Below, piece after piece: positions 47,971-57,353 of a stretch of DNA of 60,344 nt; position 1 is the stretch's first letter; the number at the start of each line of letters is the position of its first letter. The notes below the pieces were generated by a model that saw only the letters and a program-made list of their open reading frames with translations, searched no databases and had not been told where the DNA came from. The translations under genes and the position numbers were made by a program. The stretch comes from Candidatus Aenigmatarchaeota archaeon (lineage in GTDB: Archaea; Aenigmatarchaeota; Aenigmatarchaeia; GW2011-AR5; JACRAC01), in the NCBI GenBank assembly GCA_016187395.1, contig JACPJV010000006.1, forward strand, positions 1-60,344, given 5' to 3'.

Positions 47971-48246
47971 CTATTTCCATAATCTTCTGTTTTCAGAGTA
48001 GTCTGCGATGACTCCGATCAAAACTACCAGAATCAGCGAGATTATGATATAGGTAGGAATCTCTACAGACGGTGCAGCTGTTGGTGAAACCAGAGGCGGT
48101 GACGGTATGGGCGGCGGAGAAGGCAGCCCTGCTTCTAGTTCCAAAGGAGGCGACGGGAGATCCGGGGGTGGTGGTGGGAGCTCCTGCGCATAAACTGCTG
48201 CTGCAAGAACCAGGACTATCACTAATAGCGGCAGGGTCTTGTTCAT
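47971..48246 (-). CDS. Pro-rich membrane-anchored small protein
   Basis: Signal peptide, poly-Pro, C-terminal TM. Confidence 0.6.
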   Translation of the reverse strand: MNKTLPLLVIVLVLAAAVYAQELPPPPPDLPSPPLELEAGLPSPPPIPSPPLVSPTAAPSVEIPTYIIISLILVVLIGVIADYSENRRLWK

Positions 48247-48338: not shown

Positions 48339-49169
48339 ATGCGCGGGACTTTTTTAGGGACACTTCTGACGATTCTTTTCTTCATAATCATCATAGGGGC
48401 ATCTTTGTTCGCGATGATATTCTTCTCTTTCTCTTCTGGCGCGCAGGACAACGCTTTATTCCAGCTATTTACCTCGATAAAAGGAACGAGCCTTGGAGGA
48501 GGCCTGTTGCAGTATAGAATCGCAGGCGATCCGGTTACAGACATATCTATACGAACCCTCGCAAGGGGTACTTTGCAAAGTGCAGACGCGAAATCCTTAT
48601 CACTGTACATAGCAAGACTCAGAACAATTTTCAATGATAATCTGAAAGTAAAAATGGATAATTCATTATACGCAACGGGATTTGCCCCTGTATTCTGCGG
48701 AAGTGGCAATTTGATTGCCTACTGCGAGAATGCGGAGAGCGGGTGCTCTTCAGGGAGAATAGGATGCATTGGAAGCGAATGCAACAGCAACGTATGCGGA
48801 GAAGGAAGCGTGTGCTGCAAAGAATTATTCAATGTCCAGACACAAACGTATCAGGAAGAGCCTGAACTGCAGTTGTGCCAGAACAGGAAAGGCATATGTG
48901 AAATAATCGAATGCGCGCCTGGAAGGGGACTGCTGCAAAAGGACGACTCTTGTGCGGTTGCATTATCAAGAGAAAAATCCATGCAGCCTGTGCCGCTGTT
49001 CGGGTTGGAACAGCCGTTTTTGTGCTGCATTCCTTTAGGAAGGGATGAACTTAGAAGAACAGTTGAGAGAAGGGACGAGCCTGTTCTTGAGGTGCCTCTC
49101 TTATCATCGGGCGACCAGCAAAGACCTAGTGGTTACGTAGGGAAAATAGAGATTGTATCAGGTGGGTGA
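48339..49169 (+). CDS. Pilin-like surface protein with two Cys-rich modules
   Basis: MRG|TFLGTLLTILFFIIII class III-like leader; C..GC...C...CC modules; TATA at -27. Confidence 0.65.
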   Translation: MRGTFLGTLLTILFFIIIIGASLFAMIFFSFSSGAQDNALFQLFTSIKGTSLGGGLLQYRIAGDPVTDISIRTLARGTLQSADAKSLSLYIARLRTIFNDNLKVKMDNSLYATGFAPVFCGSGNLIAYCENAESGCSSGRIGCIGSECNSNVCGEGSVCCKELFNVQTQTYQEEPELQLCQNRKGICEIIECAPGRGLLQKDDSCAVALSREKSMQPVPLFGLEQPFLCCIPLGRDELRRTVERRDEPVLEVPLLSSGDQQRPSGYVGKIEIVSGG

Positions 49170-49174
49170 TCAAA

Positions 49175-52006
49175 ATGAAAGGTGTGGGTATCGATTTCAT
49201 ACTAGGAACACTCATAGCAATAGCCATGCTTGGATTATTTTACAACCTTGTGACAACCTCTGTAATTGCAAACAACAGAATAACATCAAAAATCGGCGAT
49301 ATATCTTCTGCCTACGCGGCTATAGATGCATTTCGAATATCTTACGACGGAACGCTTGAAAGGTTAGCCAAAGATTCCGCCTCATTTGCCTTGCAAAAAA
49401 GATTTGGAATGCCTTTTTCTGCAGATTTCACCGATGCAGATATGAACAATGCGTTGGCAAGCGCTTTGGCCACACCTGCCTCTGTTTCTGAATACCTGGA
49501 ATCTGATCTTTCTTCAGCCACAGTTCCGGCTCAGGCAAAACTCGCCTACAACAACAGGCCTTTTGACGTGGTTGTTGACTTTATGCTTAAAACAATATCA
49601 CTGCCTTACGAAGAAGAAGCAAGGTTTCTTTCAGAGGTCAGCCTTCTTGTTGACGGTGTTCAGATAGATACAGATACAAGATATGAGAACGAGGCAACAA
49701 GCGGGAAAAGGATACGGAATACAATATTAAATTCATGGAGCATTGCATCGTTTATAACAAGGACTCATCATCAGCTGCTGGAACCATTACAATATATTGA
49801 AGACACTCCGAGATCAAGAAGGGCAGAATTGTTTGGTATTGTAAGTTCTAATTCTGTTTTTCTTCCGTCCGACTCTGCATCTTATTTCGTTAATGCTAAA
49901 TCAGAAGGCAGTGGAATTTCTTATTCTATATCGTCTGAGATAGGGGAAACCAGAAAAATGTTTGTTACAGGGCTTTCCCCGCCGGAGTGCGGAATAAAAA
50001 AGCAGGAATATGACAGGTATGCAGGTGCTATAGAGAAAGCGCTGCCTGACAGGCTTCTTCCTTACGTAGATAATCCCAGATCTCTTATAGCTGCGGTAAT
50101 AGAAGTGCAATCTTCATGGACTCCGATACGATCAGGACTTACAGGAATGACTGCTTCAAAAACGCCTGGCGAGGAGATTCTCCTGCTTGTTAACGTGCTG
50201 GAGGATAAGGCAGATGAACTGAAGATGGACAAATTTTATGCAGACAGTGGCATGGAGGTTGTAGAAGAGCTGTTAGGCAGGATAGGATTGTCGCCTGATG
50301 AAATTAACAACATTTTAAGTCTTTATAGCAGCTGGGAAAAATGCCCGTTCAATAACCCGTTTCCTGAAGGGAGTTTTTCAAAACCGCTTGAAGGGCCCGT
50401 TATAAAATGCTACGGAGACCCTGCATGTTCAGGAACTGCTCCGTCAGAGGAATTCTATCCAGGCATAGACATATTTGGAAAGCCGGGATCTGATGTATCT
50501 GCAATACACGAAGGTCGCCTGATAAAAGTGACGATAAGGGTTGGCAGCCAGATTTACCAGGATTCTTTCTCTCTGATTTACCAGGATCCGGAGACAAGGC
50601 GCAACTTCATAACTATATACAACAACGTGGAGCCTGTGCCTGACACTTCGCAGAACTACTTCAAGGCAGGAGACAAAATAGGAACTGTTAAGGATATCGG
50701 GAATCTTTCTTACGTGACCATCATAATTGCATTTTTGCCGTTATCAGATCCTTTCCTGCACATAGAAGACTATACGATAAATCCCTGCCTTCTTATAGGA
50801 TGCATCCCGCAAACACCCGGCTTGGGCGAATTCCCTTACGTCTTCAGGGCGCTTGCAAATCCCGAAGATTATGCGGCGTTCCTCTCAGGAAAAAACGAGA
50901 AAAATATATTTCTTGGCGAGAGATTCTGCACAGAAACAAATATCAAGGAACGCGGTTTCCGGAATCTGGGATACAGCTTCTATTCAGCGGATGAAAATCT
51001 GTTTGAGGTCTACCCTGCCTTTCCCGGGAAGGTTGTGAAGGTTATGAGAGGTGACTTCTCAGGATCGGGATCGTGGTACGGATGCGGCGGAGCTGTTTTT
51101 GTAGAGACAGAGACCCCTTCGGGATCTTTCATAACAGCCTACGGTGGCACTACTCCTTTTGTTTCTGAAGGAGATTTTGCAAGCAGGAACCCCTTTCTTG
51201 GAAAGTCAATCATAGGGGGTGTTTCAAATTTTCACGGCCTCTGCCCTGAACCGCATCTGGATGTCCGGATATTCGAGAAGAGCTACATTCCTGAAGAAAG
51301 CATAACAAACGCCTGCGGAACAGCGGTCAGCGAATGCACGGTTGCGCCGCCTGCGCCTGATGAAATAAGCACAACCGTATACGCATTCAAAAACCACTGC
51401 GCAGCGCTTGAATGGGAAGCTGTCTCGCGTGCGTCATTCTCGCCTACATTGGCCAAAAAACAGCTCGCGCTGAATTATGAGAAAATTCCAGAGGCCCTTA
51501 GAACAAGAATGGAAGTCACGTCGCCTGCATCCTGCGAGGGCGACGGGAGATTCAAGTGGCAGGATACAGAAGATGCGTTGTGCATGGATGGACAAATTCA
51601 CATCTGCACGACAACTGAACAGGCTTCCGGGGAGAATATTCTTTATGAAGACATGACGGTTGGAAGTTACACCTGCAGGATATTCGAAGAAGGGCTTCGC
51701 GACAGATGCGTAGAACATTCCGGAAACATCCTGCTTGAGCAGAAATGCGGGCAGAAGATACAGAATCCGGACTTTGAAAAATATGCAAACTGGGTTTCCC
51801 AAAAGCTCGCAGGACCTCCAAGCCAGCCTGAGTCCGGGACGCTGTTCACCAGGGTGATATCAAAGCTGTGCAGTTCAGAGGAGGATCAGAAGGATTACAC
51901 GTGCTGCGTTGCAAGCGGCAAAACCTACAGATGCACAGGAAGCGTGGCCCTGGACCCGACAAGCTTTGAACTAACATGCAACGGAGAGGCTGCGTGCACT
52001 AGCTAG
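49175..52006 (+). CDS. Large pilin-like surface protein with degenerate SLT-like and two M23-like domains
   Basis: MKG|VGIDFILG leader; LIAAVIEVQSSWTP; FYPGIDIFGKPGSDVSAIHEG; VYPAFPGKVV...PHLDVRI; Cys-rich C-terminus. Confidence 0.7.
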   Translation: MKGVGIDFILGTLIAIAMLGLFYNLVTTSVIANNRITSKIGDISSAYAAIDAFRISYDGTLERLAKDSASFALQKRFGMPFSADFTDADMNNALASALATPASVSEYLESDLSSATVPAQAKLAYNNRPFDVVVDFMLKTISLPYEEEARFLSEVSLLVDGVQIDTDTRYENEATSGKRIRNTILNSWSIASFITRTHHQLLEPLQYIEDTPRSRRAELFGIVSSNSVFLPSDSASYFVNAKSEGSGISYSISSEIGETRKMFVTGLSPPECGIKKQEYDRYAGAIEKALPDRLLPYVDNPRSLIAAVIEVQSSWTPIRSGLTGMTASKTPGEEILLLVNVLEDKADELKMDKFYADSGMEVVEELLGRIGLSPDEINNILSLYSSWEKCPFNNPFPEGSFSKPLEGPVIKCYGDPACSGTAPSEEFYPGIDIFGKPGSDVSAIHEGRLIKVTIRVGSQIYQDSFSLIYQDPETRRNFITIYNNVEPVPDTSQNYFKAGDKIGTVKDIGNLSYVTIIIAFLPLSDPFLHIEDYTINPCLLIGCIPQTPGLGEFPYVFRALANPEDYAAFLSGKNEKNIFLGERFCTETNIKERGFRNLGYSFYSADENLFEVYPAFPGKVVKVMRGDFSGSGSWYGCGGAVFVETETPSGSFITAYGGTTPFVSEGDFASRNPFLGKSIIGGVSNFHGLCPEPHLDVRIFEKSYIPEESITNACGTAVSECTVAPPAPDEISTTVYAFKNHCAALEWEAVSRASFSPTLAKKQLALNYEKIPEALRTRMEVTSPASCEGDGRFKWQDTEDALCMDGQIHICTTTEQASGENILYEDMTVGSYTCRIFEEGLRDRCVEHSGNILLEQKCGQKIQNPDFEKYANWVSQKLAGPPSQPESGTLFTRVISKLCSSEEDQKDYTCCVASGKTYRCTGSVALDPTSFELTCNGEAACTS

Positions 52007-52814
52007 GCCTGTTTTTTATTATCTCCACTTTTTTATCCGCAACGTCCTGTGAATTCACTTTTCTCACTGTTTCTGTCGCATCCCCTGCTACGTATTCAAC
52101 TCTTTCTCCGAACTTGAAAGGATTCTCCCTGCTATAAACAAGCTCTGCCTCTGTTTTTCTGCATGAAGTGAAGAAATCTATGCTGCCTCTGGACGTTATT
52201 ATCATTGCACGCATGCATATCCTGCCGTCTTCGCCGTATAACTCGCATTCATTGCCTGCACGTGGCTCGCTCACACCGCTTATACCCCTCCCGACACCCT
52301 GGCACAATATCCTTGTGACAACTTCTTTGGCGATCAGTGCCTTCTCTGCGTCGCACGTGAATCTTGACAGCGCATAATCGAATATTACGACGCGCATCTC
52401 TGCAGGCAGAAGGGTTTCTCCGCTCTTTAGCCACACGCCGTATCTGCCGACAAACGTGCTTTCGGAATTCTCTATATTCTCAAAAGTTTTGTCGCTCAAA
52501 AACCCAAAGCTCCAGTTTTCCTCGTAACCGCTTTCATTCAAAAGATAAAACCCGTATCGTGCAGCCATGCTGCACGGTCTGACCAGCTCCTCGTCAGAGC
52601 CATCCATTTTTTTGATCAAATCCAGATCAAAAACCCCCCTGCTTGCCGTGAGGTTTGACTGTAGCATGAGATTTGCAGATTCTGCGGCCACTTTTTCCAT
52701 TGACTGCGTGTTGATCTCGGCGTAAAAGGCGTTGTTCAGGAGGATTGCCATAACAACGAATCCTATTAGCGCCACCATCCTGATCAAAAAATTTACCTGC
52801 TCCGCCATCGACAT
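51999..52814 (-). CDS. Membrane-anchored pilin-like hypothetical protein
   Basis: MAEQ + hydrophobic N-terminal helix. Confidence 0.6.
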   Translation of the reverse strand: MSMAEQVNFLIRMVALIGFVVMAILLNNAFYAEINTQSMEKVAAESANLMLQSNLTASRGVFDLDLIKKMDGSDEELVRPCSMAARYGFYLLNESGYEENWSFGFLSDKTFENIENSESTFVGRYGVWLKSGETLLPAEMRVVIFDYALSRFTCDAEKALIAKEVVTRILCQGVGRGISGVSEPRAGNECELYGEDGRICMRAMIITSRGSIDFFTSCRKTEAELVYSRENPFKFGERVEYVAGDATETVRKVNSQDVADKKVEIIKNRPS

Positions 52815-52827
52815 GCTATCGCCTCCA

Positions 52828-53250
52828 CTATGCGGGCTCTGTTGCCTCTACATTTACCTTGTCATCCTGCCTGCGGAAGACAAGCATCTGATTCCTGCTG
52901 CAGTCTTCACTTTTCTGCCAACTTTCAACCAGATACTTTCCATCAACGGATATGATGCTTGCTGCTGAAACTCTTTGCCCGGACTTCAAGTCAACAAAAT
53001 TTTCATGTATCCGGAGTTCGCAGCTGCTCAGCCTTGGCAGCAATAATTCGTACACAGAACCTTCAGGCGCTTCCTGCATTACGCCTGCTATTGACGCTAT
53101 TTCAGCGGTGGTTGCCGCCAAGCTGAATTTTACTGCGTTTTCGCCCATGCTGCTTATTGTTGTGAAAAAAACCACTACAAAAACTAGCATTATCAGGAGC
53201 ATTGCCCACGTCTCCAGCGGCTTGGTGAGTACGTATACCTGCTCTGCCAT
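52828..53250 (-). CDS. Small pilin-like hypothetical protein
   Basis: MAEQ...hydrophobic helix, then AEIASIAGVMQEAPEG. Confidence 0.6.
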   Translation of the reverse strand: MAEQVYVLTKPLETWAMLLIMLVFVVVFFTTISSMGENAVKFSLAATTAEIASIAGVMQEAPEGSVYELLLPRLSSCELRIHENFVDLKSGQRVSAASIISVDGKYLVESWQKSEDCSRNQMLVFRRQDDKVNVEATEPA

Positions 53251-53275
53251 GGAAATAGTAGTTTGGTTCTTTGCT

Positions 53276-53372
53276 TAAAGCAAACCAACTTAATAAACGA
53301 CATACGAAAAGTTGGTTTGCTTTATGGGAAAGCACAAATAACATGTTCCGTTTCATTTGTGGTTTCACTATA
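53276..53372 (+). mobile_element. Double-hairpin MITE-like element, copy F
   Basis: 97 bp; AAAGCAAACCAACTT/AAGTTGGTTTGCTTT plus a second hairpin; close to copy D. Confidence 0.8.
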
Positions 53373-53434
53373 AAGATTGCAGAGCTTTTCCTCTGAATGA
53401 TTTCAAAGCTCATTCCTCCTTGCATTGCTTCCCG

Positions 53435-53481
53435 TGTAGTGAACCAACTTTCCAGCGGTATTTTTAAGTTGGTTCACTATA
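53435..53481 (-). repeat. Solo half-element hairpin
   Basis: TAGTGAACCAACTT-N15-AAGTTGGTTCACTA. Confidence 0.7.
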
Positions 53482-53491
53482 AATAGTGATC

Positions 53492-54919
53492 ATGGCGCGA
53501 GGCATAGGCTTACCTTTAGTTCTTTTGCTTGAGGTCATGGTTGCAATAATAGCCAGCGTAGTAATTGCGAACTTTCTGAACTCTGCGTGGAATCCGCACG
53601 AGCAAGCTGCGTTTGCGAGCGCGGAGGCGCTGGCGCTGACCATTGACGAGGTATGCGGAAGGCAGCTTGGCTTTTCAAAGGAACTTGACGTCAACGTGCC
53701 GCAGCCGACGCCGCCTGTGATCGGAGGGACTACACTGTTCCCTCAAATAGGAATGCGGATAAACGGCGATCCGCACTATCTTCTCTATTATGAGAATTTC
53801 CCTCCAGGCGAGGCAATATCCTGGGAGATCTACAACAATTTTCCGGAGCGTGCAGTTGTATTTGCCGACCCGGATGAGGGAGAGACGCTGGGAGAATACG
53901 TCGGAAGGTTCAGGCAAAACCTGCAAGCAGCAGGCTTTTCAACAGAGCTCAGCAGGTATGTCTTTGGAAATATAGTGCTGAATGACGTGCCGGAAAAAGG
54001 CGAAACGCGTCTTGCAGGCGACATAGGCCACTGGGAAGGGAATGTATACAAATTTGACAAGACTCCTGTGCTTGCAAAGGCAGACCAGTCGCTTGCCAAA
54101 TACCGCACCTGCAGTCCCTTTTCCCTGTGCTTCAAGACCCGCCAGGGAATTGTGCGGATACCGCTGCATAACTGCAGGCGTGCCAACGTGACGATAATGC
54201 AGGTGGAAAGAGAACCGCCGTCTCATCCAACTGGCGCTGTGGAGGATTACGGCAAGACTGCTCTCGGAGGCATTGCAATAGGCACAGCAACAGGAGCTAC
54301 GATAGGAGCGGTTGCAGGCATCTGGACAGGACCGGGTGTATTGGCAACCACGCTGACAGGTGCAAAGATAGGTGCGTGGGTTGGAGGCTCGCTTGGTGTG
54401 ATAGGCACGTCCTTCAAAAGAGTGAATACCGTTGGCGACGTCTCTGATTTCTACCTGGCCAGTCCGTGCAAGGCAAAGGCAGAGATTACAAAAACCACGT
54501 GCGAATGCAGGAGCAGCAAGTTGCCTGACGCTGTTCTGCCAGAAACATTTAAAAAAGAATATACAAGCGATGAGTTCGGAATATATGAAATATCCTCTGG
54601 AAACCTTGTATCGTCCAAGGAAAAGAGCGCCTGCATACACCAGTATTCAAGGGACGACAAGCTGGAGGAAAGAGAGCTGGAAAAGGAGTGCGTCAAGGTT
54701 CGGCTTGACGTCTCTGAAGGAAGCTTCTGCACAGGAGGGCAGAATGAGCTGGGCCAGGTCACGCTGAGCACTGTGTGGCATGACAGCATCGAGAAAGGCC
54801 TTGCCCAGATGTTTGACACCAAGGAATTGAGGAAGGAGGTGACTGTCGGCGAAAAATCAGGGTTCATCCAGAAGGCTTTTGGCGGTTTAAGGGTTCCGTT
54901 TGGATGGCCGGTTGGATGA
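53492..54919 (+). CDS. Pilin-like surface protein with glycine-zipper insert (paralog of 55734-57248)
   Basis: MARG|IGLPLVLLLE leader; GDPHYLLYYENFPPGEAISWE; DFYLASPC. Confidence 0.7.
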   Translation: MARGIGLPLVLLLEVMVAIIASVVIANFLNSAWNPHEQAAFASAEALALTIDEVCGRQLGFSKELDVNVPQPTPPVIGGTTLFPQIGMRINGDPHYLLYYENFPPGEAISWEIYNNFPERAVVFADPDEGETLGEYVGRFRQNLQAAGFSTELSRYVFGNIVLNDVPEKGETRLAGDIGHWEGNVYKFDKTPVLAKADQSLAKYRTCSPFSLCFKTRQGIVRIPLHNCRRANVTIMQVEREPPSHPTGAVEDYGKTALGGIAIGTATGATIGAVAGIWTGPGVLATTLTGAKIGAWVGGSLGVIGTSFKRVNTVGDVSDFYLASPCKAKAEITKTTCECRSSKLPDAVLPETFKKEYTSDEFGIYEISSGNLVSSKEKSACIHQYSRDDKLEERELEKECVKVRLDVSEGSFCTGGQNELGQVTLSTVWHDSIEKGLAQMFDTKELRKEVTVGEKSGFIQKAFGGLRVPFGWPVG

Positions 54920-55612
54920 TCACCTGCCTATATCTGTCGGCTCGCTTCTGCCGCTTATTCTTGTTGCCATCCACCTGTCGGTACCGTCTTTGTCTATGAG
55001 AAACGGCATGCTTATGAAATCCGAATCTGTAGAAAAGCAATATCTTACAGGCGTGGTGTCGCCCGGGATATCCGAAATTACTGCAATAACCTCGCATTCA
55101 TGCCCTGCTATTGTTCTGGTTCCTTCTGGCTTGGCAGATATCAACTTGCTTATTCTGTGGCGCGTTGTCATGGTATCTTCGGGACATCTAAATGGAATGG
55201 AGTACTCGCTTTGCTCAGACCATAAAAGATTTGAAGGCGTTGCAGGCGGAAGGTGATGTCGCATATAAATCTTGCCGCCAACAGAGGCGTACCTTTGGGG
55301 AAACCTGCTTAAAGGCCCTGACCTTGCTCCCTCTGGAAGCATGTCCTCTGGCAAAAAATCAAATCTCCAGTTATTTCCGTGCCTGCTTATATCCACTGTC
55401 CCTTTTTTTTCTCCTGTTTTCTCCCGGCTTAAGGAATAGGCAATGAAGTATTCTCCGCCGTTTTCGCAGTAGCTTTGCATTTTTTTGATCCTATCCTCAA
55501 ACCTTTCTCTTGCATTATTAAACGGATTGACCCTGTCAAGGATTCCTGTAGATGCTGCCCATATGCCTGCCCCTGCAATAAGCAATCCTGACGCAATATA
55601 TGCTAATTTCAT
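54920..55612 (-). CDS. Membrane-anchored hypothetical protein (paralog of 13650/24805)
   Basis: N-terminal TM; EGTRTIAGHECEV...YCF. Confidence 0.65.
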   Translation of the reverse strand: MKLAYIASGLLIAGAGIWAASTGILDRVNPFNNARERFEDRIKKMQSYCENGGEYFIAYSLSREKTGEKKGTVDISRHGNNWRFDFLPEDMLPEGARSGPLSRFPQRYASVGGKIYMRHHLPPATPSNLLWSEQSEYSIPFRCPEDTMTTRHRISKLISAKPEGTRTIAGHECEVIAVISDIPGDTTPVRYCFSTDSDFISMPFLIDKDGTDRWMATRISGRSEPTDIGR

Positions 55613-55733
55613 GATGAACACCCAACACCAGTGCATCTGGTGTTCAGCATCTCGAAATAACCCAGTATTTTTAATCGAAGTTCTTTCAGAGATAATCCAA
55701 TTGCAGGCCGAAAGCTATTAAAGCTATGAAGCG

Positions 55734-57248
55734 CTATGGCCACGAATACCCGGCAGCTCCCAGTTTGGTGCTGATGCCGGAAGGCCTTGCAAACTGGTCT
55801 GTGCTCTCCAGGGTAACTATGCCCTGGTAAAGTCCTCCGCCAAGAACAGATGCAGACTGGTAGAGAGGGAATTCACTGCTGCCTTCAACTCCTTTGAACT
55901 TGGAAAAGCAGAAGCCGATGTGATCTTCCACTGTAACGCGGATGCACGAGGGTATTACAGGCGTTTTCTGGTTTAGCTCTTCAAACTTGCTTTCGTCTGT
56001 TTCTTCAACATCGATCTTCTCGCTGTTTCTTATCATCCTCTGCCTGCACCGGAATCCGTCTTCTGCGCGGTTTGCCGTGTAATCATCGCCGCTCCCTTCG
56101 AGCTGCCATTTCTGTGTTTGGAATGCAGTTTTATCAACCGGAAGGAACCCGGGGAAATCAGGGAAATCATCCCAGCACGTGCATGATGTTTTTTCTATCT
56201 TCACGCTTGCCCTGCACGGGCTTGCAAGATAGAAGTCTGTGTTTGACTCGGCTGAAAATATGCTTGAAACATCGTCCGCCTTTCCGCCTACATATGCTGC
56301 TAAGGTTGTCTTCAGAGCTGCTCCTGCCGTGGTTTTTGACAAATCTATGCCCATGCTGAGGTAGCTTGCGGTCTTTTTTGATGAAAACAGGCGCACTATA
56401 GGTTTCCACGTGTGTGCTGTGGCTATCTTCAGAAACTTCCCCACAACCCTGGTCCAGCTAAAAAGCGATATGGTAATAGGAACTGCCTTGCCAATCACGG
56501 TTGTGGATCCCTTGAACATAGGCTGGTAGGTGGTCAGCTGCATGTAATTAATGCCTGCTTCCGCGCACTTGTCAAGGGGATAAACGATTATTTGTTTGGG
56601 TGTTTTGAGGCATAGCGCGTTCACGCCGCATAACCTGTATTTGACCGCTGTTTTGTTCAGAGGGCTTAGCGATTCATAATTGTCAAAGACATACCTGTTT
56701 CCTTCCTTGTTCCATTTTCCAAAGTCGCCGATAAGATTGAAGCCGCCTTTCTGCCTGTCCTTCAAAGGCACATTTGCAAAAACAGCGCTGGAATACTGCA
56801 GGCGCTCCAGCGCGTTTCTTTCCAGAACAGACAGTTGCTCGTCCCTCACAGAGTCTGCGTCAGGATTCTGGTAATATAATACTGCGCGCTTGCCGAAGTC
56901 ATGATATAATTCCCAGCTTATGGCTTCGCCTGGCGGAAACGACTCGTAGTATAAAAGTATATTCGGGTCTCCTCTGCTGGACAGAAGACCTCTTGGGATG
57001 ACGTTCTTTGCAATCACAACCCCGCCAAGATCCACGTCTGCAACAGACTGGGGAAGTGACACTTCTATGCTTTTGGCAGAGCCGCTCTGGCAGACCTCGT
57101 TGATTTCTTTGGCGAGGAGTGCGACAGATGTCTCTGCCTCTGCCTGGAAAGGCTGGAGACCTTCTTTTACAAATCCTCCCAGGACAAACAGCGACAGCAA
57201 AAGCCCCATTACCATGAATAGAAGTTCAAATTCTCCGTCCCCTTTCAT
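55734..57248 (-). CDS. Pilin-like surface protein (paralog of 53492-54919)
   Basis: MKG|DGEFELLFMVMG leader; GDPNILLYYESFPPGEAISWE; DFYLASPC; ends YSWP. Confidence 0.7.
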   Translation of the reverse strand: MKGDGEFELLFMVMGLLLSLFVLGGFVKEGLQPFQAEAETSVALLAKEINEVCQSGSAKSIEVSLPQSVADVDLGGVVIAKNVIPRGLLSSRGDPNILLYYESFPPGEAISWELYHDFGKRAVLYYQNPDADSVRDEQLSVLERNALERLQYSSAVFANVPLKDRQKGGFNLIGDFGKWNKEGNRYVFDNYESLSPLNKTAVKYRLCGVNALCLKTPKQIIVYPLDKCAEAGINYMQLTTYQPMFKGSTTVIGKAVPITISLFSWTRVVGKFLKIATAHTWKPIVRLFSSKKTASYLSMGIDLSKTTAGAALKTTLAAYVGGKADDVSSIFSAESNTDFYLASPCRASVKIEKTSCTCWDDFPDFPGFLPVDKTAFQTQKWQLEGSGDDYTANRAEDGFRCRQRMIRNSEKIDVEETDESKFEELNQKTPVIPSCIRVTVEDHIGFCFSKFKGVEGSSEFPLYQSASVLGGGLYQGIVTLESTDQFARPSGISTKLGAAGYSWP

Positions 57249-57353
57249 AGGATTACTTTGCCAGGGCGGTAAATAAATGTTCTGAAGTGAAGCAAATATC
57301 AGGCTGTTCATTTCTTTCCCAGGTTTTTAAATTTTTGTTTCGTTTTATGATGC

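Follow-up and report, generated by a model that had tools for sequence, protein, structure and literature searches.

Systems of the archaeal type IV pilus (T4P), or type IV filament (TFF), kind were catalogued by Makarova, Koonin, and Albers (2016; PMC4858521), and in some DPANN genomes unannotated signal-peptide genes lying beside a secretion ATPase and TadC were predicted to encode diverse pilins (Makarova, Wolf, and Koonin 2019; PMC6393860). Here, we analyzed a cluster of seven genes (g1 to g7, positions 48339-57311) in a 60,344-nucleotide stretch of DNA (the window, contig C6, positions 1-60344) from a Candidatus Aenigmatarchaeota archaeon. The window is part of a 127-kb contig in a genome of 0.98 Mb, 42 contigs, and 79.6% completeness. 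The cluster is probably the accessory (minor-pilin-like) part of an Aenigmatarchaeota-specific type IV filament system. That it belongs to a pilus-type system is highly likely; whether its proteins act as minor pilins or at a filament tip is an evenly balanced matter, and contact with bacteria is a tentative and rather doubtful proposal. A first-pass annotation of the same DNA had taken the proteins for minor-pilin or tip components of a type IV filament used for attachment to, or penetration of, another cell. It was largely right as to kind, a pilus-type accessory set being supported by co-conservation, by the motor genes, and by a structural model of g4; the role is one that we infer, and g3 is not a classic prepilin.

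Shared with the catalogued archaeal T4P (PMC4858521) are an ATPase of the PilB/FlaI/VirB11 family, a TadC/FlaJ platform, an A24 peptidase, small pilins bearing predicted class III signals, and putative minor pilins, all of which occur in the operons of relatives and are dispersed in the present genome. The differences lie in the accessory families, named F3, F1s, F4, F1m, F1L, F5, and F6 below, none of which was matched by a Pfam or NCBIfam model, and in the ATPase, which is long (~740 aa) and carries an insertion in this genome. The main text of that catalogue makes no mention of DPANN, Aenigm*, peptidoglycan, or M23. The DPANN “dark-matter” islands (PMC6393860) represent the same kind of locus and follow the same logic as the Aenigmatarchaeota operon, but the prediction made there was a general one, without this operon order, F3, or pilin-fused hydrolases, whereas the island described here is detached from its ATPase and TadC.

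A second parallel is found in the modular pilins of bacteria, such as Streptococcus sanguinis PilB (with a vWA module) and PilC (with a lectin module), whose modules were proposed to sit at the filament tip (Raynaud et al. 2021; PMC8179133). F1L shares this architecture of a pilin-type N terminus, assigned from sequence and not from a model, with a grafted module. The proteins of that study are bacterial and bear the IPR012902 motif, whereas in the present family relatives carry SLT, M23, or amidase cargo and g2 has an M23 domain that looks inactive. GspI-J-K and PilY1 are named in that paper, and the terms archaea, peptidoglycan, M23, and hydrolase are absent from its main text.

The set also compares with minor-pilin tip complexes, in that four to five different pilin-like proteins, one of them large, are likewise encoded together. 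Such complexes, GspH-I-J-K in the type II secretion system (T2SS) and four minor pilins with PilY1 in type IVa pili, are thought to prime and cap the filament. No sequence relation or significant fold relation to them was found; number, sizes, and domains differ, and some members of the present set lack prepilin leaders. In the main texts searched, neither this operon nor family F3 was described, and murein hydrolases of pilin type were not reported for Aenigmatarchaeota.

Gene order in relatives and in this genome

Relatives of g5, which belongs to family F3, were identified in 44 of 61 genomes of the order, a count that includes the genome under study. Neighborhoods were gathered as 20 loci fetched first and 39 more found by motif scan; 16 of the latter were dropped for sharing a 60-mer with an earlier locus, and 24 of the 39 public loci encoding a g5 relative are assigned to Candidatus Aenigmatarchaeota. 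Of the resulting 43 distinct neighborhoods, 42 hold F3. Open reading frames (ORFs) were called by a crude longest-ORF rule, and families were defined by BLASTP clustering.

The order that recurs among these loci is an ATPase (F10, ~740 aa), a TadC-like protein (F7, ~660 aa), F5, F6 or a variant of it, F3, F1s, F4, F1m, F1L, and one or two F2 pilins. The F2 proteins that close the operon are small Cys-containing pilins of 100-135 aa with an MKG-ISLPIE... start; Alba often lies between them and FEN1 often behind them. Co-oriented downstream of F3 were F4 (38/42 loci), F1m or F1L (35/42), F1s (30/42), and the MKG pilins of F2 (24/42), and upstream of it were F6-like genes (33/42, namely, F6 in 20, N106 in 8, N113 in 3, and N108 in 2), F5 (32/42), TadC (19/42), and the ATPase (15/42). 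These counts include many loci that stop at contig ends, at least four called genes being available downstream in only 35 loci and upstream in only 34. Of the four loci in which F4 was not found downstream, two (L079 and L097) are at contig ends and two (L056 and L071) have an inverted block.

A Pfam search of one such operon (L058) recognized T2SSE (66.2 bits), T2SSF (28.5 bits, with a cutoff of 25.2), and M23 (90.4 bits), plus Alba and XPG/FEN1, and the complete sets of F4 (39) and F1s (32) members, searched against Pfam, produced isolated chance-level hits only. The F3 profile matched 355 cluster representatives at an E value of ≤0.001 (149 at 1e-30) among 1.84 billion proteins; within the phylum it matched 102 of 301 sampled genomes, at full length in the window's order and partially, inside longer frames, elsewhere. 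Judged by sequence, the F3-F1s-F4-F1m-F1L operon is conserved, phylum-restricted, and of a predicted pilus type. The genes that the first-pass annotation had grouped into one apparatus are strongly co-conserved in the 42 F3-bearing loci.

In the window itself, seven open, full-length frames span 48339-57311, each encoding a protein with a single N-terminal hydrophobic stretch, and six of them could be assigned to the families above. The gene g1 (48339-49169, plus strand) encodes a 276-aa F1m protein (E = 8.7e-16 with a hidden Markov model [HMM] from 28 relatives); behind its MRG leader come a hydrophobic helix and an ectodomain rich in Cys (14 residues). Next to it, g2 (49166-52006, plus strand; 946 aa) starts MIKMKG and belongs to F1L (tblastn against the F1L of locus L039, E = 2.6e-34); it is a modular pilin-like protein with a Cys-rich C terminus. 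The product of g3 (51999-52814, minus strand; 271 aa starting MSMAEQ, or 269 aa from MAEQ at 52808) falls in F4 (HMM from 40 relatives, E = 4e-32); a conserved Arg marks its N-terminal anchor, and a K/R-G leader is lacking. A small pilin-like F1s subunit of 140 aa is encoded by g4 (52828-53250, minus strand; family HMM, E = 2.8e-19), which starts MAEQ and is without the MKG leader of many homologues. Two genes belong to F3: g5 (53486-54919, plus strand; 477 aa starting MIMARG, with MARG from the ATG at 53492; E = 4.8e-76), inverted relative to g7-g4-g3, and its divergent paralogue g7 (55734-57311, minus strand; 525 aa, or 504 aa if MKG at 57248 is taken as the start; E = 3.4e-67). Except for this duplicated F3, the five families are single copy in this genome by HMMs and tblastn. 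The six anchored proteins of the first-pass annotation correspond to g1 to g5 and g7; it had not counted the seventh anchored gene, g6.

Canonical order is retained on the minus strand for g7 ... g4, g3. The F1m-F1L block (g1, g2) is inverted, with g2 and g3 converging in an 8-nt overlap, and g5, the additional F3 copy, has been inserted facing the other way, with the orphan g6 following g7. In L056 and L071, the F1s-F4-F1m-F1L block is likewise inverted, there relative to F5, the F6-like gene, and F3; inversion inside the operon therefore occurred more than once. The two F3 copies are 38% identical over residues 13-247. In a quick F3 tree, g5 paired with the single F3 of the same-family genome L039 (SH-aLRT 87) and g7 stood next to that pair (SH-aLRT 92); SH-aLRT is the only support computed, none of these forks reaches 95, and g5, g7, and the L039 protein are on long branches.

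T2SSE, T2SSF, and Peptidase_A24 had no match anywhere in the window, in agreement with the earlier observation that no motor or peptidase gene is present there. Orthologues of the ATPase and TadC were located beyond it on the same contig (C6:91754-97985), 34-41 kb downstream of the cluster. The operon-type TadC (C6:91772-93781) is 52% identical to that of L039, and the ATPase orthologue (C6:93867-97931) consists of two matching blocks in one 1379-aa frame, as fits an insertion. A prepilin peptidase was recognized on another contig (Peptidase_A24 at C25:32185-32496, 31.9 bits with a cutoff of 26.5) in an ORF of 268 aa (C25:32143-32949), and the same contig carries a second, shorter ATPase/TadC pair. 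F2 pilins are encoded at C35:29455-30165 (two, beside FEN1), C35:73791-74919 (two, around Alba), and C6:78022-78453. An F5 orthologue (C6:75533-76504, E = 9.3e-14) was also found; with two small anchored genes it occupies C6:75533-77248 (plus strand), beside a giant SLT protein and the TadC/ATPase locus and divergent from them. The canonical operon has thus been parted: its upstream half is still close to the motor, and its downstream half is the present cluster. That the accessory set stays complete though cut off from motor and pilins argues for action in trans.

N termini, folds, and the weight of a pilus-type reading

Leaders of the form M-x(0-4)-[KR]-G are present in g1, g2, g5, and g7, and MAEQ starts are present in g3 and g4, just as the first reading of the DNA had it; the class III signal in these four proteins is a sequence pattern, with predicted cleavage. 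A signal of this class consists of a short basic leader that ends in Gly or Ala, abuts a hydrophobic helix of ~20 residues, and is removed ahead of that helix. Followed by a hydrophobic stretch, the strict pattern was found in 27 of 1283 crude ORFs genome-wide and in 3 of the 7 cluster genes (binomial P = 4e-4), g7 failing the scan solely because three acidic residues (Asp, Glu) come after its Gly. In a looser scan of residues preceding N-terminal stretches genome-wide, [KR]G was no commoner than [KR]S (28 versus 26); the dipeptide alone therefore proves little. Family by family, K/R-G/A directly before the hydrophobic stretch was counted automatically in the first 20 loci plus the window, a procedure that undercounts, a few leaders visible by eye having been missed. 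Such leaders were scored in 24/24 members of F2, 16/19 of F1L, 11/17 of F1m, and 5/12 of F6. In an alignment of 41 F1L sequences, K5 and G6 were nearly invariant, and C790 and C814 were invariant. Leaderless members of F1s and F3 start with Met plus acidic residues, aligned just after the Gly of leader-bearing homologues, as does g4 with MAEQ; such N termini would not require a prepilin peptidase.

The AlphaFold2 model of g4 (32 homologues; pLDDT 88.8) has a helix at residues 2-60 followed by six strands and is, as modeled, a pilin-like lollipop of N-terminal helix plus beta-sheet. In the type IV pilin fold, an extended N-terminal helix of ~50 residues packs on an antiparallel beta-sheet, and a disulfide is common. 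A VIA-align comparison with 48,161 chains placed Thermus PilA4 (6xxd) first (Z 4.6, rmsd 3.3, 89 aligned residues), and 12 of the 50 best rows were type IV pilins or type II pseudopilins, with GspI, EpsI, and XcpV/W among the weak matches. The F1s alignment keeps two Cys (C77 and C117), and the F4 alignment has invariant C79, G102, and C152. When g3 and g4 were modeled as a complex with family alignments, the score was 0.12, with the mark at 0.32, a result that counts neither for nor against binding.

For g5, the AlphaFold2 model (40 homologues; pLDDT 73.9) comprises a helix (residues 8-57), a confident alpha/beta domain (64-245), an unmodeled segment (254-315), and a beta domain (319-409). 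The F3 alignment has 19 invariant columns, with 6 Cys, and its residues 3-59 were aligned by hhalign with the F2 pilin N terminus at 84.8% probability, a modest argument, given that hydrophobic helices make up both regions. Between the domains runs a Gly/Ala/Thr-rich, low-charge segment of 5-163 residues (at least 40 in 29 of 40 members) that is, judged by the alignment, a variable linker and no conserved module. The membrane-active-looking module that had been read into the cluster comes down to a Gly-zipper match in g5 (13.6 bits, with a cutoff of 28.9) within this variable, low-confidence linker, and we do not retain it. Within a few residues of the C terminus, most of the 40 aligned F3 members carry a W-x-W-P motif (W474 and P475 being invariant in g5 numbering), which is not a sortase-type signal because no hydrophobic segment comes after it.

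Searches beyond the families were mostly uninformative. Pfam and NCBIfam searches of eight window proteins gave nothing that reached any cutoff, and Foldseek returned no match in the PDB for g5 at an E value of ≤0.001. Sequence searches of solved structures with g2, whole and as two parts, and with the F3 and F4 profiles yielded nothing significant, the best hits being an Rhs-family chain (E = 0.16) and “Geopilin domain 1” (E = 0.46, on F3 residues 8-47). In the ESM Atlas, g5 had uninformative neighbors (scores up to 0.76); the nearest neighbor of g3 was an Aenigmatarchaeota cluster (0.91), and leads to DUF7287/7288 (0.87, 0.81) were not confirmed by Pfam. The earlier description of the cluster proteins as Cys-rich holds by percentage for g1 (5.1%, 96th percentile); the others, at 1.4-2.5%, lie in the 62nd-83rd percentile, though Cys counts are even in the cluster proteins (14, 24, 6, 2, 10, and 10), all are positioned behind the anchor, and many are conserved.

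Under the reading that we favor, a PibD-like A24 peptidase would cut the K/R-G leaders of g1, g2, g5, and g7, and the ATPase/TadC pair would polymerize the F2 pilins. The products of g1, g2, g5, and g7, together with leaderless g4, would then join the base or tip of the F2 filament via their N-terminal helices, in the fashion of minor pilins in bacterial type IV pili and type II secretion, the large subunits turning their ectodomains outward; F4 (g3) and F5 would serve as membrane-anchored accessories. The nearest working precedent is the bacterial modular pilin, which would act here jointly with a minor-pilin complex of several proteins.

A number of results weigh against this reading. Leaders were scored in only 7/18 members of F1s and 9/22 of F3 and in none of F4 (0/21) or F5 (0/13), and g3 and g4 begin MAEQ; part of the accessory set, by its N termini, is not classic prepilin, and F4 (g3) in particular is none because the leader occurs in 0/21 members. 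Leader cleavage and the filament are themselves predicted, and expression is presumed. As for folds, all VIA-align matches of g4 had Z scores below 5, where trust is advised only above ~8, and thus amount to a common arrangement by the tool's own standard, and Foldseek gave g4 no match in the PDB at an E value of ≤0.001. An hhalign comparison of F1s with F2 pilins aligned only “MKG,” and one of F4 with F1s gave nothing. The whole 477-residue g5 model had no VIA-align row at a Z score of ≥2, in a comparison that can miss multidomain models of more than 400 residues, and the F3 ectodomain, as modeled, is one for which no solved fold was matched. Co-location of subunits and motor, present in relatives, is lacking in this genome, with the cluster 34-41 kb away and pilins on C35. 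The 42 loci were ascertained via F3 itself, and related genomes are nonindependent. Lastly, the g4/g5 junction crosses a dispersed repeat (see below) and is uniquely bridged by no public contig; depth there goes up ~10-fold and contigs break.

Such N termini and sizes could also suit a different product of the same machine. The ATPase and TadC might build a short pseudopilus or a “bindosome”-like array that displays the large class-III-signal proteins (F3, F1m, and F1L), an alternative that we consider unlikely. An array of this sort would resemble the Sulfolobus Bas system or the pseudopilus of type II secretion. Most operon members are large ectodomain proteins (390-914 aa in F3, 380-1614 aa in F1L), F1L carries enzymes, F4 and F5 are without prepilin leaders, and accessories dominate the operon, with merely one or two small pilins at its end. 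Yet these small MKG pilins, which close 24 of the 42 loci, exist in this genome too, as a filament would require; the present data do not separate a display array from a long pilus by filament length.

An improbable further option is that the cluster works alone, as a Sec-inserted, anchored envelope or adhesion complex independent of any pilus motor. It would fit the 34 kb between the cluster and TadC/ATPase and the placement of pilins on another contig, the lack of K/R-G in g3 and g4 and of genome-wide enrichment for this dipeptide, and the fact that no family, sequence, or fold match beyond the N-terminal helix ties F3 and F4 to pilins. Against such independence, the five families stay with ATPase, TadC, and pilins across the order, every component persists in this genome, and the g4 model is a pilin-type lollipop and not a plain anchor plus domain.

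Cell-wall modules and possible contact with bacteria

The accessory (minor-pilin-like) set that we favor includes, in F1L, proteins with recognizable cargo. Among 41 F1L-class ORFs, matches at an E value of ≤0.001 were obtained for Peptidase_M23 (13, g2 included), SLT (10), Amidase_3 (2), Amidase_2 (2), SLT_2 (2), Glucosaminidase (1), and Lysozyme_like (1). When F1L proteins were scanned singly, 17 of 25 had a murein hydrolase domain, located 300-400 residues behind the K/R-G leader, and the eight domainless ones were mostly short forms. F1L would thus be a “modular pilin,” in which a pilin-type N terminus carries cargo, in relatives a murein hydrolase of the SLT, M23, or amidase kind; such cargo would point to bacterial walls as the target.

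The copy in the window is different. Its M23 (LytM-like) domain is degenerate (aa 415-548 of g2; 50408-50809, plus strand) and was recognized through a profile alignment and a Pfam match of 23.8 bits, under the gathering cutoff of 28.7. The zinc-binding and catalytic motifs of M23 are HxxxD and HxH, and both are visible in a profile of 12 relatives' domains (“fhkGiD” and “hLhlev”). Against that profile, g2 has F-Y-P-G-I-D, with Tyr for the first His of HxxxD, and V-T-I-I-I-A in place of HxH, so that three conserved His are missing. Other M23 proteins in the genome (on C10, C12, and C23) retain H-L-H. A possible vestige of an SLT motif (aa 300-320; 50063-50125, plus strand) was aligned, nonsignificantly, with a profile of nine relatives' SLT domains over those residues only (E = 0.081, 4.1 bits). 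The catalytic Glu of SLT lies within an “ES” motif, for which the nine relatives have the consensus “kESsw”; g2 has Gln at that position, and Pfam gave no SLT match in g2 at an E value of ≤1. An intact SLT domain with the Glu-Ser motif is encoded in this genome by the giant protein of 3638 aa (C6:78465-89381) that adjoins TadC and the ATPase.

The g2 protein appears to descend from a murein-hydrolase pilin-type protein and is most likely no enzyme, its M23-like module being most likely a binder (a pseudo-enzyme adhesin): with the metal-binding and catalytic His gone from that domain, binding is more likely than cutting. Hydrolase cargo can, it seems, decay to a probable binder, as in g2. Of the first-pass claim that the cluster carries peptidoglycan-enzyme-like modules, what stands is the single subthreshold match in g2 and a hydrolase ancestry apparent in relatives; the catalytic residues have been lost here. 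Penetration of another cell by the g2 protein, as the same annotation had considered, is unlikely because the module is without catalytic residues in this genome.

Inactive LytM domains have precedents. EnvC and NlpD are catalytically inactive LytM-domain proteins, and in bacteria such domains bind and regulate but do not cut. The M23 fold with its metal-binding His replaced is common to them and g2, whereas g2 derives from a pilus-type operon of an archaeon without murein, and there is no sign of amidase activation by g2.

Bacterial-type murein hydrolases on the surface of archaea have been described in other settings. Large extracellular proteins with murein lytic transglycosylase domains were reported for Woesearchaeota and Pacearchaeota, and an Aenigmarchaeota-specific module of families without predicted function was reported in the same study (Castelle et al. 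2021; PMC8204110); bacteria-killing peptidoglycan hydrolases of archaea were described more recently (2025; PMC12352652). In common with the present families, these systems place such domains on secreted or anchored archaeal proteins and were read as contact with, or attack on, bacteria. They differ in being giant or modular secreted enzymes and not pilin-type proteins in a pilus operon. The terms Aenigm*, pilin, and pili are absent from the text of PMC12352652, and the word peptidoglycan is absent from the main text of Li et al. (PMC8407114). No host of Aenigmatarchaeota is reported in the literature examined.

Surface structures are the usual handle on encounters between DPANN archaea and their hosts. 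The repeated association of F1L with bacterial cell-wall hydrolases gives rise to a testable hypothesis, that these archaea target bacteria. A bolder version, to which we give rather little credence, is that an Aenigmatarchaeota filament armed, at its tip or along its shaft, with murein-hydrolase-bearing modular pilins attaches to bacterial walls and opens them in episymbiosis or predation; in the present lineage, g2 would then be a pseudo-enzyme adhesin, cutting would have passed to the giant SLT protein, and F3, a two-domain protein rich in disulfides and matching no known fold, would be a conserved adaptor between filament and cargo that defines the lineage. The operon supplies named parts to seek in proteomes and tomograms, and five unannotated families gain a context-based annotation.

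Rearrangement, repeats, and neighboring features

It is scarcely credible that the cluster is a decaying remnant left by rearrangement and loss of hydrolase active sites: there are, to be sure, two inversions relative to the canonical order, the orphan g6, two dispersed repeats inside the cluster, a g2 with its catalytic residues gone, and long branches for g5 and g7, but all seven frames are open and full length, the family-invariant residues, conserved Cys included, are kept in g3, g4, g5, and g7, the locus recurs little changed elsewhere, and L056 and L071 are also inverted yet have intact genes. The recurrence was observed in contigs of four DNA runs from one groundwater study, which show few differences from the window; these four were the matches among the public sequencing runs searched, which included no RNA run containing the locus. 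Public contigs bridge the g2/g3, g5/g6, g6/g7, and g7/downstream junctions.

The accessory set is interrupted by one repeat family. In the divergent spacer between g4 and g5 (53251-53485), a dispersed palindromic repeat of ~40 nt, to which no strand is assigned, is present in two copies (53280-53320 and 53439-53477). Each is a palindrome with 12-nt arms and a 15-17-nt loop, and the second copy is changed in both arms with the palindrome preserved. Genome-wide there are nine full copies, all in or near intergenic DNA, and half-sites number 25, versus 2 for the reversed pattern. This repeat may have mediated the inversions of the cluster. A mobile or foreign island was also considered, and no sign of one was seen in base composition, the GC content being 0.45-0.49 across the cluster and similar to that of the remainder of the window. 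A scan for sigma-70 promoters and terminators, with a model not meant for archaea, gave sites no more numerous than in shuffled sequence.

The orphan g6 (54920-55636, minus strand; 238 aa) encodes an N-terminally anchored protein outside the conserved operon and is wedged between g7 and the inverted g5, its stop abutting that of g5. None of 60 genomes of the order held a relative, a search of 5.8 billion protein clusters returned only the protein itself, and Pfam and NCBIfam gave no match. Beside g1 on the other flank, a 91-aa protein (47971-48246, minus strand) has a signal-like N terminus and a hydrophobic anchor at its C terminus, with a Pro-rich stretch (PPPPPDLPSPP...) in the middle; it falls outside the conserved operon, the 20 loci fetched first having no relative of it.

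Other filament genes in the genome were also considered. An archaellum was rejected, no archaellin (PF01917) match being found in the genome as assembled (79.6% complete). The region C11:8846-10662 encodes three more small proteins in which an MKG(I/L)xP(I/V) start leads into a hydrophobic helix; Pilin_N is weakly matched there, at C11:10237-10350. These make up a further pilin set, of a more conventional archaeal type, which the shorter ATPase/TadC pair of C25 may serve.

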